Assembly (NCBI GenBank): GCA_050486505.1
Contig: JBJHDK010000001.1
Coordinates: 1 to 64,000 of the forward strand
From: Fibrobacteria bacterium
GTDB taxonomy: Bacteria; Fibrobacterota; Fibrobacteria; UBA11236
Length of the DNA: 64,000 nucleotides
Reading direction: 5' to 3'
A program made the translations under genes and the position numbers. Below, one piece after another: positions 39,411-43,175 of the stretch. Each line of letters begins with the position of its first letter. Positions within the stretch are counted from its first letter, which is position 1. The notes beneath the pieces were generated by a model. It did no database searches and had not been told where the DNA came from. It worked only from the letters and a program-made list of their open reading frames with translations.

Positions 39411-39580
39411 AGTTATGAATTATGAGTTATGAGTTATGAGTTGGGGGCTGGTGGTTGCAAAATCCGGATTTCATGACTGTTACCGGTGCTGTCCTGAATC
39501 ATGATATCCCAATCAGGACGCGACCCGGTTCCCCCAGACTCATAACTCATCACTCATGACTCATAACTCGTTTCTTAATT
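39411..39580. repeat. Inverted heptamer arms (TTATGAG / CTCATAA) around an ~95-bp core
   Basis: agttatgaattatgagttatgagttatgag ... actcataactcatcactcatgactcataactc. Confidence 0.75.
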
Positions 39581-39587
39581 TTCTCCG

Positions 39588-40517
39588 ATGTCCGACTCTT
39601 CGAAACACCTCCTCAATCTCGTCGACCAGCCCACGGCTCTCGTGCGGCGACTGGTCGATGATGCCGTGCGTCTGCGCGCGGAATTCCGGGCGAACGGCCC
39701 GACCGATGCCCTGAAGGGCCGCACCGCCGCCTTGTTTTTCGAGAAGCCCAGCCTGCGCACCCGCGTCACCTTCGAGGTGGCGATGATCCAGACGGGGGGC
39801 GCGGCCATCGTGCTTGATCCGTCTTCGGTGTCGCTGGGCAAGCGCGAGACCGTGCATGACGCGGCCAAGAACCTGTCGCGCTGGGTCGACTGCATCGTCG
39901 CGCGTACGTTCACGCAGCGATTGGTCGACGAACTGGCGCACCACGCTTCGGTTCCCGTGATCAACGCGTTGACCGACGAGGAACACCCGTGTCAGGCGCT
40001 CGCCTTCGGCGAGATGCTGCACGAGCGGCGCGGGTCCCTCGAGGGCGCGCGCGTGGCCTTTGTGGGCGACGGCAACAACGTGGCGAACAGCCTCGCCGCG
40101 CTGGCGGGGCATTGCGGAATGCATTTCACGCTCGCCTGTCCCGAAAGCTTCGAGCAGCCCGCGCCGTTCATCGAAAAGGTGGAAGCGCTGTGCCGCACGA
40201 CCGGCGGCAGTTACCGTCAGGTGCGCGACCCGCGCGAGGCCGTGAGCGACGCCGACATCATCTACACCGACGTGTGGGTGAGCATGGGTGAAGAGGAGCA
40301 TGGCGCGGAGAAGGCGCTGCTTTTCAAGGATTACCAGGTGAACATGGAGCTGCTGACCGCGGCGCCGGAGCATTGCGTGGTGACCCACTGTCTTCCGGCG
40401 CATCCGGGAGAAGAGATCACGCAGGAGGTGATGGATTCACCGCGCTACGTCGCATTCGACGAGGCCGAAAACCGGCTGCACGCCCAAAAGGCCGTGCTCC
40501 TGCACCTGCTGTCCTGA
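39588..40517 (+). CDS. argF: Ornithine carbamoyltransferase
   Basis: FEKPSLRT, HPCQ, GDGNNV, DVWVSMG, HCLPAH, EAENRLH. Confidence 0.94.
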   Translation: MSDSSKHLLNLVDQPTALVRRLVDDAVRLRAEFRANGPTDALKGRTAALFFEKPSLRTRVTFEVAMIQTGGAAIVLDPSSVSLGKRETVHDAAKNLSRWVDCIVARTFTQRLVDELAHHASVPVINALTDEEHPCQALAFGEMLHERRGSLEGARVAFVGDGNNVANSLAALAGHCGMHFTLACPESFEQPAPFIEKVEALCRTTGGSYRQVRDPREAVSDADIIYTDVWVSMGEEEHGAEKALLFKDYQVNMELLTAAPEHCVVTHCLPAHPGEEITQEVMDSPRYVAFDEAENRLHAQKAVLLHLLS

Positions 40518-40545: not shown

Positions 40546-41127
40546 ATGCCTCGTCCCAAGCTTCACACCGACGCAGCAGTGCTCGCAGCAGCGCTGGCGG
40601 TGCTTTTACGCAAGGGACCATCCAGCTTTACTCTATCCGACGTCGCGACCGAGATCGGCATGTCACGCGCCGCGCTCATCCAGCGCTTCGGTGACAAGGC
40701 CAGACTGCATTATCTGGTGAGGGAGAGCATGACACGCGAAGTGCACGCGTACTTCGATGGTCTCGATCCCGCGCGCTTCGGCAAGGGCCTCGCACCCCTT
40801 TGGGACATGCTCCGGGACTTGATCTCAGGCATGGGTTCGGGAGAGGATACCCCCGGCTACCTGCTTCTTAACTGGGCGGATATTCAGGATCCCGGCCTTT
40901 TGCTCCTCGCGCGCGAGAGTGATGAACGCGTTCGCCATGAAATCGAAATCCGGCTGCCCGCGAAACCGCATCCTCCGTCGGAAACCGCGTCCCTCGTTCA
41001 AGCCGTGATCCAGGGTGCGTGCATGCAGTGGTTGGTCAGCCGCGAGGGGACGTTGGTTCGTTTCATGACCGACCAAACCCGGCGGGTCTTGCAGGCGCTT
41101 TACCCCGAACACAGCTTCAAACCATAG
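40546..41127 (+). CDS. mphR: TetR-family repressor, MphR(A)-like (macrolide-responsive family)
   Basis: MPRPKL..D..VL.AA..VL..GP..FTLS.VA.E.G.SRAALIQRF, Y LL.W...Q.P.L, VIQGACMQW, ..PEH all match MphR(A) as recalled. Confidence 0.8.
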   Translation: MPRPKLHTDAAVLAAALAVLLRKGPSSFTLSDVATEIGMSRAALIQRFGDKARLHYLVRESMTREVHAYFDGLDPARFGKGLAPLWDMLRDLISGMGSGEDTPGYLLLNWADIQDPGLLLLARESDERVRHEIEIRLPAKPHPPSETASLVQAVIQGACMQWLVSREGTLVRFMTDQTRRVLQALYPEHSFKP

Positions 41128-41164: not shown

Positions 41165-41194
41165 TTCATATATAACCGACGAGAAGGTTATATT
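41165..41194 (+). promoter_or_regulatory. Promoter overlapped by a palindromic MphR-type operator
   Basis: ATATAACC-GACGAGAA-GGTTATAT (41170-41193); TTCATA-18-TATATT promoter; resembles the recalled mph(A) operator ATATAACCGACGTGACTGTTACAT. Confidence 0.75.
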
Positions 41195-42289
41195 ATGGCC
41201 ATGGAATGGGTCGTCTCCAGACAGAACGAAACAACTTCGCCGGTTAACGTCGAGAGAGGGCATGGGGGGCACACTCCAAGGCCTCTCCTGCCAGGGTTCG
41301 TGCCGGAAGAATTCGATGCCTTGCCGCAAGGTGTGCCAATCGTTGATTACTCCGACCTTTTCGGGACGGCGGAAGGGACTCCCTGGCTGAGACAGTGGGC
41401 CTCGGAGCGAGGGGTGGATCTCAGGGGATTGAGACCAATCAAGGTCGAGCGAGGGCCGCGCACCTGCAAGCATTTGTTCGCGCTGCGCGACGGGTACGCG
41501 GTCGAAAGCGTGTTGATCCGCCGTCGCGACGGGGAGACCGCCTGCATCTCATCCCAGGCGGGCTGCGGGTTCGGCTGCCGGTTTTGCGCTTCGGGTCGGG
41601 CAGGCCTCAAGAGAAACCTGCTGTCGGGGGAGATCGTCGAGCAGGTCGTGCGCTTGGGGCGCGGAGTCAACCGGATCGTGTTCATGGGAATCGGCGAACC
41701 TCTCGCCAATTACACGCAAGTCATTCGCGCCATCCACGTGCTTCGGGATCGCCGGGGCATGAATTTCCCGACGACGGGAATCACGATCTCGACGATCGGC
41801 ATTCCGTCCGCGCTCAAAAGATTGCGGGAGGAGCATCTCGGGATCAACCTGACGGTTTCATTGCATGCAACGACCCAGCAGGTCCGTGACTGGCTGATTC
41901 CCGGGGCTCGCGGTCACGCGCTCAGCGAGGTCGTTGCGCGCGCGTTGTCGTGGGGCGAGAGGCACGGACGCACCGTGACCTTCGCATACCTGCTTCTCCC
42001 CGGGATCAACGACTCGCCGCAAGATTCCGCGAGATTGGCGGGCATGCTTCGCGGTCGACCCGCCAGGGTGAACCTGATGCGCTGGAATTCCGTGGAAGGC
42101 GCAGGATTCGCGCGGATCGGAGACTCGGGATTACGACGGTTCAGGGGACAACTGGAACGCGCTTCGGTCCCCGCGACGGTGCGTGACACACAGGGACTCG
42201 ACGCATCGTCGGCGTGCGGCCAACTGTGGCTGCGCGACGCACGGGGAAGACCTTTTCCCGCACGCCGCGACCCCGCCCGGGACCGATAG
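41195..42289 (+). CDS. RlmN/Cfr-family radical SAM rRNA methyltransferase, Cfr-like
   Basis: ESV, CISSQAGCGFGCRFC, FMGIGEP, STIGI, NLTVSLH, AYLLLPGINDS, VNLMRWN, SACGQL. Confidence 0.88.
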   Translation: MAMEWVVSRQNETTSPVNVERGHGGHTPRPLLPGFVPEEFDALPQGVPIVDYSDLFGTAEGTPWLRQWASERGVDLRGLRPIKVERGPRTCKHLFALRDGYAVESVLIRRRDGETACISSQAGCGFGCRFCASGRAGLKRNLLSGEIVEQVVRLGRGVNRIVFMGIGEPLANYTQVIRAIHVLRDRRGMNFPTTGITISTIGIPSALKRLREEHLGINLTVSLHATTQQVRDWLIPGARGHALSEVVARALSWGERHGRTVTFAYLLLPGINDSPQDSARLAGMLRGRPARVNLMRWNSVEGAGFARIGDSGLRRFRGQLERASVPATVRDTQGLDASSACGQLWLRDARGRPFPARRDPARDR

Positions 42290-42301: not shown

Positions 42302-42961
42302 CTACCAGGCGTCGTCGTCGCCGGCTTCGGCCTTGGCCGCCGCAGCTTTCGCCTCGAGCTCCTGCACGGCCTCGTTGTACTTCGTGTTGCAGGGGGTTCT
42401 TCCCGCGAAATGCTCCAGGATGGGCGCGAGCTTTTCTTCGGAGAAGGTCAGCTTCATCTGCTTCGTGATTTTCCCCTTGTATCCCCACTCCTGCATCAAC
42501 GCTTCGCTCAGTTCGAAGCAGTCGTCGAGGGCGTAGAAGTTCATCTCCGAGGACTGAAAGGCGTAGCAGACGTCCATTTCCATGCACTCGGGAGGGGACT
42601 GGGTCTCGTCTTCCATCCACTTGTGCACGTGGCGACGGCGGACCTCAAGCGACTTCTCGAGCTTCATGTATCCGGTGACGAAGAACCGGCCGCGAAACTC
42701 TTCGCGCAACCCCTGATAGCGGGTGCCGAAGAGGAAATAGCGGCGGCGGGCCTTGAACGCAGAAGCACGCGTGCGCGCTTCAATGCACTGGATCACGCCA
42801 TAGGTGCCGGTTTCGTAGTTGGGTTCGAGCACGGGATTGCCCGCTGCGTCGTAGGGTTCGCGCACGGGAAGGTCATGGTCACGCGACGACGAGGTGTGAA
42901 TGAGAACGCCCTCGGCCTTGCCGCGGTAGTCTTGCCATCCGGTCTGGGTCATGATTGCCAT
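42302..42961 (-). CDS. Hypothetical protein
   Basis: 219-aa ORF with host-like codon usage; GAAAGGA RBS; EPNYETGTYG motif. Confidence 0.75.
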   Translation of the reverse strand: MAIMTQTGWQDYRGKAEGVLIHTSSSRDHDLPVREPYDAAGNPVLEPNYETGTYGVIQCIEARTRASAFKARRRYFLFGTRYQGLREEFRGRFFVTGYMKLEKSLEVRRRHVHKWMEDETQSPPECMEMDVCYAFQSSEMNFYALDDCFELSEALMQEWGYKGKITKQMKLTFSEEKLAPILEHFAGRTPCNTKYNEAVQELEAKAAAAKAEAGDDDAW

Positions 42962-43175
42962 GTGTCGTTCCTTTCGGCGATGCCGTGAGGGGCGCGTGCG
43001 CCGCGCCGGAAACGTGTTCCGGTCGAAGGCAACGCGCATGTGTCGGGGGTCAGGACAGGAGGATTCGCACCGGAATCCCCGTGTCAAACGGGGAAGACAT
43101 GAACAAAAAGGCGCGAGTCATGGTGAATTTTCCGGTTTTTTCCTGTGGTGTCTCACCAATATACACCAAGCGTCA

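Follow-up and report, generated by a model that had tools for sequence, protein, structure and literature searches.

In the 64,000-nucleotide stretch of DNA analysed here (the window; Fibrobacteria bacterium, contig JBJHDK010000001.1, positions 1 to 64,000), an MphR-type operator was located over the promoter of a gene whose product falls in the MrmA clade of radical SAM RNA methyltransferases, downstream of a gene for an MphR-family TetR protein. The TetR protein is likely to repress the methyltransferase gene and a macrolide is likely to lift that repression, and the predicted methylation of 23S rRNA would protect the cell from erythromycin-type drugs (probability of about 0.62). The locus is best read as a macrolide-inducible target-modification module, of a kind not found in the literature searched. 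Its features are the following:

39588 to 40517, + strand: argF, the left flank of the insertion site, ending 28 nt before the TetR gene.
40546 to 41127, + strand: MphR-family TetR repressor of 193 aa, with the recognition helix SRAALIQRF of MphR(A) and Ser/Asp at the positions of R122/N123.
41165 to 41170, + strand: degenerate −35 hexamer TTCATA, with an 18-nt spacer; a weak candidate, as the relatives mostly have TTGWWT with a spacer of 17.
41170 to 41193, no strand: MphR-type operator, a dyad of 22-24 bp with its core at 41171-41192; the left half is the mph(A) half-site.
41181 to 41187, + strand: Shine-Dalgarno (SD)-like GAGAAGG within the operator, 7 nt before the ATG at 41195; putative function.
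41189 to 41194, + strand: TATATT as the −10 hexamer, placed in the mph(A) register; the right operator arm overlaps it.
41195 or 41201 to 42289, + strand: class A radical SAM RNA methyltransferase of the MrmA clade, catalytic residues intact.
41201 to 41203, + strand: in-frame ATG 6 nt past the −10, the likely leaderless start.
42302 to 42964, − strand: conserved hypothetical gene without a Pfam or NCBIfam match, bounding the insertion site on the right.

The window was scanned for inverted repeats, and ATATAACC-GACGAGAA-GGTTATAT, with 8 nt between the arms, was found at 41170-41193, in the 67-nt gap that separates the TetR gene from the radical SAM gene. The operator is unique in the window even when 2 mismatches are allowed, none of 100 shuffles yielded one, and TAACC-N8-GGTTA occurs a single time in the 2.4 Mb genome, at this site. 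Since perfect 8-bp repeats are frequent genome-wide (1981 matches, 43 with AT-rich arms) and one arose in 42 of the 5000 shuffled versions of the intergenic stretch, the palindrome by itself is only modest evidence. The strong part of the evidence, beyond the bare palindrome, is the match to the real mph(A) operator. The mph(A) promoter on plasmid NZ_CP133287.1 reads TTGAAT-ATAACCGACGTGACTGT-TACATT; positions 41170-41194 are identical to it at 21 of 25 bases, with both −10 hexamers in register, and the 12-mer common to the two has an expectation of 3e-6 per 76-nt stretch. In the sequence-only reading the mph(A) promoter had been quoted and the operator placed identically relative to the −10; the sequence quoted there proved correct, with an exact shared 12-mer, and TATATT does align with TACATT.

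A matrix was built from the sites of 34 relatives and gave the family site as a 22-bp dyad of consensus TATAACCGACGCGTCGGTTATA. The left half-site in the window equals this consensus and the right half-site deviates at three inner positions. The perfect dyad with a neutral 8-nt spacer that had been proposed was therefore replaced by a 22-bp dyad with a drifted right half, while its match to the mph(A) operator stood. The window operator scored 33.5 bits (training range 22.2-39.3), and a matrix scan of the genome returned no other site above 11.6 bits, which makes the enzyme gene the only predicted target in the genome. In the same way, no second operator was detected before the window tetR gene (best score −10.7 bits). 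The inner halves of the sites were compared for covariation, and 99 of 170 pairs were symmetric against 101.9 after shuffling of the halves, so that a compensatory signal is absent. By sequence and linkage, the palindrome is an MphR-type operator.

The TTCATA-18-TATATT promoter of the sequence-only reading was recovered by a consensus scan (9 of 12 positions; 2 matches against 0.8 expected), and its −10 lies in the family position. The −35 is degenerate by comparison with the relatives, in which TTG is present at 22-25 of 27 per column; these TTG columns, like the inner C/G columns, are not circular, whereas the fully conserved ATAAC/GTTAT columns were selected for and are. The ATG at 41201 lies 6 nt after the −10, as had been claimed, and of 29 distinct promoters 17 have a start codon exactly 6 nt past the −10; in 7 of these 17, the window among them, it is in frame. 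Five Devosia-type copies have no other start ahead of the conserved N-terminus, which speaks for a leaderless mRNA. The proposal of a leaderless transcript is thus plausible; weighed against it are the same-genus copy G277, which has no start codon at the 6-nt position, and the second in-frame start, ATG 41195, with GAGAAGG 7 nt on its 5' side, in the drifted right half-site. ATG 41195 would be a rival start if the transcript reads through from argF-tetR. In 10 mobile-type copies (L002-L004, L006, L007, L011-L013, L031 and L098) the start 6 nt past the −10 is out of frame and opens an ORF of 36-48 codons that overlaps the enzyme start 43-44 nt downstream; this ORF is possibly a second, translational layer of control.

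Loci related to the window were collected with the enzyme as query (80 genome loci, plus one plasmid locus); 89 were examined overall. A TetR gene lies upstream in 28 of the 81, and all 28 have ATAAC-N10-GTTAT, with at most 1 mismatch, before the enzyme gene. Over the 89 loci the operator was present in 33 of 33 TetR-positive loci (3 of them circular, having been found through the operator pattern) and in 1 of 50 TetR-negative ones, the other 6 having too little upstream DNA. The 33 contain 27 distinct promoter 40-mers. The 28 of 28 do not amount to 28 independent events, because they belong to one clade with many near-identical mobile copies, and the cases that cross contexts are stronger evidence than the tallies. 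In G277 both operator arms are exact and the spacer and flanks differ, and the Pelagibacterium copy equals the mph(A) site over 24 consecutive bases. A blind metagenome scan for the operator gave 117 matches (37 with short flanks), of which 15 adjoin genes of MphR systems: 8 mph(A)-type, 3 esterase-like alpha/beta hydrolases, 3 window-type enzymes and 1 TetR fragment only. The other 102 have no related gene nearby; contigs of run X1 may be where the window comes from and do not count as independent of it. The operator thus tracks the TetR gene across loci and outscores every other site in the genome, in agreement with the earlier claim that its target is the adjacent methyltransferase gene. 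An MphR-like TetR gene and the same operator were also seen before EstT/EstX-like hydrolases (L099:2504-3465, L135:2222-3175 and L146:2503-3456); for 2 of these 3 that were scanned, the best NCBIfam families were macrolide esterases, below cut-off. Judged by sequence, the esterase-like hydrolases behind an MphR-type operator would form a further MphR-controlled module.

When the TetR protein was compared with the PDB, MphR(A) and one variant were the only relatives (E 1.4e-31 to 3FRQ). It is 39.7% identical to plasmid MphR(A), with homology over the full length, and its recognition helix SRAALIQRF, identical to that of MphR(A), recurs in 115 of 120 homologues; the conservation of the operator site follows from that of the helix. 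The assignment to MphR made in the sequence-only reading is upheld by these results. The accessible part of PMC13500785 reports that a macrolide releases MphR(A) from its operator. By analogy, a TetR dimer bound at the window operator would occlude the promoter of the methyltransferase gene, and a macrolide would free it and turn transcription on. Several relatives (L023, L024, L026, L047, L164, L011 and L018) carry a further operator 5' of the TetR gene, which suggests autoregulation there; in L011 it precedes a DUF4440 ORF. The repressor gene is broken at its 5' end by IS1247 in L002 (3552-5555), and in L008 (2474-3883) the 5' end is interrupted by an insertion with a transposase-like ORF.

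The TetR or enzyme gene is carried by only 2 of the 296 genomes of Fibrobacterota. The empty site is seen in five congeners, where argF and the downstream hypothetical gene face each other directly, and the module occupies one chromosomal site in two congeners, with a TetR 75% identical to that of G277 (L091), as are the flanking genes; the single site and this divergence suggest long residence. The enzyme shares only 63-65% identity with its G277 counterpart, a value no higher than for the copies from alphaproteobacteria, and the enzyme gene may have changed faster or been replaced. In other hosts, a Nitrospira MAG and several alphaproteobacterial genera, ten loci carry the module at 99.5-100% identity to one another; one of the ten has the enzyme half only. 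In 12 loci the module lies between an RlxS-like relaxase gene and a LysR gene; floR is close by in 9, and at least one locus has tet(G). The relaxase-bearing carrier is presumably a Tn4371-type element. On a Rhodobacter plasmid, resistance predictors called floR and tet(G) and missed the MrmA-clade gene. No match to a mobile copy of the module was obtained by megablast in E. coli complete genomes. The hypothetical gene at 42302-42964 faces argF in 11 of 12 genomes of the genus and has a weak atlas likeness to Nmad2/Nmad3-bearing clusters (11-26% of members). An exact 12-nt direct repeat, GACTCATAACTC, with copies 21 nt apart, is present at 39537-39569, just 5' of argF.

All class A features are present in the enzyme (C117, C124, C128, C131, C341, E104, M164 and E168, covering the CX3CX2C motif, the catalytic cysteine pair, E105 and MGxGE). 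Its predicted model has a pLDDT of 87 and its best structural matches are RlmN-family chains (TM 0.72-0.78). MrmA is an RlmN-type enzyme on C. difficile transposons; when it was expressed in E. coli, the erythromycin MIC rose 512-fold and that of streptogramin B by a modest amount, while the values for tylosin, clindamycin, tiamulin, linezolid and chloramphenicol did not change; the target base was not mapped in the accessible text (PMC11983580). As MrmA reference, the L088 ORF that matches exactly both cloning primers given in the available part of that report was used. Identity of the window enzyme to this reference is 46% overall and reaches 51% in the core; to RlmN it is 35-38%, and to Cfr 36%. 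When 33 selected sequences were placed in a maximum-likelihood tree over 259 core columns, the window branch (93) and the MrmA branch (100) joined at UFBoot 94, apart from Cfr, and a FastTree analysis of 83 sequences agrees with this grouping. There are 17 signature columns common to the window enzyme and the MrmA clade and nearly absent outside it. In window numbering they include two arginines of the base-binding pocket, R110 and R160, as well as the RNA-binding segment 184-195, which is rewritten; these changes would fit a different target nucleotide. By these sequence comparisons, the window enzyme belongs to the MrmA clade rather than to Cfr. Since its branch is sister to the MrmA branch, not nested within it, its function may have diverged from that of MrmA.

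Most of the other MrmA-branch loci scanned lack resistance genes in their neighbourhood, which counts against the resistance reading: among 49 neighbours scanned, the only resistance-type matches were one SMR protein, at an MphR-linked locus, and one hexapeptide-repeat protein. On a Paraclostridium plasmid (L085:121-3972; NZ_CP094938.1) a mef(A)-like MFS gene, hflX and an MrmA-clade gene annotated rlmN are followed by tetB(P). The Firmicute MrmA-type genes L089:2650-3825 and L088:2791-3975 lie directly 3' of a short cysteine-rich KTR-domain ORF, and no MphR operator was found before them by an upstream pattern scan.

A housekeeping RlmN was rejected for the window gene: its TIGR00048 score is 246.9 against a cut-off of 290, it occurs in 2 of 296 genomes of the phylum, and the genome has its own conventional RlmN on C14. 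A third RlmN-family gene (G000:C48:2960-4070), 34% identical to E. coli RlmN, lies on a long branch outside Cfr and MrmA. Relatives of the window enzyme are annotated rlmN in databases.

Once induced, the enzyme would methylate a 23S rRNA adenine in the macrolide site of the exit tunnel and so protect the ribosome. The methylated position may be C2 of A2058, which is a guess; C2 chemistry is preferred because T115, V162 and T332 give the pocket an RlmN-like (C2) character. The available part of PMC8121947 describes the N2 of a guanine at 2058 as modelled in a mild clash with the desosamine sugar. By our own reasoning, a C2 methyl group would leave N6 free and could explain why clindamycin is spared. 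Taken jointly, a wider proposal is possible and is put forward tentatively: the MrmA clade may be a third A-methylating radical SAM class, its product m2A2058 mimicking the 2-amino group of A2058G with N6 free; MphR would have been recruited to make it macrolide-inducible, and the pair would form a two-gene, unrecognised resistance unit, annotated rlmN, on floR-bearing integrative elements across Gram-negative phyla.

The strongest alternative, which we rate as rather unlikely, takes operator and repressor as real and supposes that erythromycin has ceased to act as inducer in this lineage (a different macrolide, some other molecule or nothing having taken its place), or that the methylation is unrelated to resistance. 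According to the accessible part of 10.64898/2026.10.16.759199, R122 and N123 line the erythromycin pocket of MphR(A). These residues are kept in 90 of the 100 closest homologues and are Ser/Asp in the window TetR; the same Ser/Asp is common to the 3-4 closest TetRs, G277 included, and is therefore lineage-specific and no assembly error. The pocket positions K21, F99, S106 and H147 are likewise unlike MphR(A), across the whole subfamily. A lost response to erythromycin would also agree with the long residence at one site and with the drift of the right half-site and the −35. It is opposed by the retention of V66 and V126, both named as MphR pocket residues in the available part of PMC7589898, and by the operator arms and recognition helix, which are exact in both congeners. 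The PDB variant 6U18, which we take to be a still-inducible, clarithromycin-selective MphR, also deviates at position 122, where it has Thr.

The sequence-only reading had called the regulated gene Cfr-like, and a Cfr-type methyltransferase, acting at C8 of A2503 and conferring PhLOPSA resistance, would share the superfamily and the occurrence of mobile copies near the phenicol exporter gene floR (9 loci). This is very improbable. The Cfr NCBIfam models gave 184-186 bits against cut-offs of 468-550, and Cfr and Cfr(C) form a separate clade with support of 100. The accessible part of 10.1101/2025.09.18.677109 states that Cfr resistance needs each of Y97, W101, S103, S151, Q329 and F330, and that Cfr left erythromycin susceptibility unaltered; in the window enzyme the six positions are R, a gap, T, R, T and Q, so that none is kept. 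The label was dropped, and with an MrmA-clade enzyme in place of Cfr the expected phenotype shifts from PhLOPSA to erythromycin-type resistance, which would suit a macrolide sensor much better.

There is equally little to be said for an enzyme that acts on the macrolide itself or on tRNA in place of 23S rRNA: other targets of MphR operators (Mph and Est-like) act on the drug, the RNA-binding arginine pair R206/R207 of RlmN and Cfr is T/G in the window enzyme, and the target of MrmA is unmapped in the accessible part of PMC11983580, but the window enzyme retains the two catalytic cysteines along with the architecture of a class A RNA methylase, and the resistance reported there for MrmA covers erythromycin and streptogramin B, which are chemically unrelated and have a ribosomal site in common. 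A chance AT-rich repeat arising from promoter composition, for which the genome-wide and shuffled repeats counted above could be cited, is ruled out by the conservation of the operator alongside TetR and by its match to the mph(A) site, together with the 33.5-bit matrix score.

An MphR-controlled MrmA-clade methyltransferase gene is accordingly preferred as the reading of the locus. A link between MphR and RlmN was not found in the literature searched, with subscription journals largely outside that search; the literature found for mrmA with macrolide, methyltransferase and 23S rRNA concerns C. difficile only, and RlmN with floR gave nothing relevant among the matches listed. MphR(A) is known as the switch of a drug-inactivating kinase, and here the same operator and repressor family stand over a predicted ribosome modifier. 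The linkage to MphR offers independent evidence, from regulation, for a macrolide-related role of a wide clade annotated rlmN, and the range of MrmA, with reports so far from C. difficile, would widen to environmental bacteria that are Gram-negative. The gene is likely an overlooked macrolide-resistance gene, with near-identical relatives beside other resistance genes in many bacteria. The unmapped target base of MrmA becomes directly testable, and natural variants of the MphR pocket and operator are supplied for biosensor work.

Compared with Cfr, the window enzyme has the same radical SAM fold, catalytic cysteines, and accessory and mobile occurrence, and differs in failing the Cfr cut-offs, in lacking all six resistance determinants and in its separate clade. 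RlmN provides the closest solved folds, and T115, V162 and T332 are of RlmN type; the differences are a score below the TIGR00048 cut-off, R110 and R160 at the base pocket, the lack of R206/R207 and a patchy distribution. With the mph(A)-mrx(A)-mphR(A) operon the locus shares the operator sequence, its place over the −35/−10 spacer, the full-length homology of the repressor and the recognition helix. There, however, the repressor gene stands at the end of the operon, the targets are a drug kinase and a transporter, and the repressor pocket has R122/N123; here it precedes its target, the gene of a predicted ribosome methyltransferase, and the pocket has Ser/Asp. A further close system is MrmA of the C. 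difficile elements Tn6110 and Tn7806, as described in the accessible part of PMC11983580: the clade, the short N-terminal domain and the status as an accessory to a housekeeping RlmN are the same. At the positions of Cfr Q329/F330 the window enzyme has T332/Q333 where MrmA has S/H, and the window branch occurs in Gram-negative and actinobacterial hosts and here carries the MphR operator that the MrmA loci lack.
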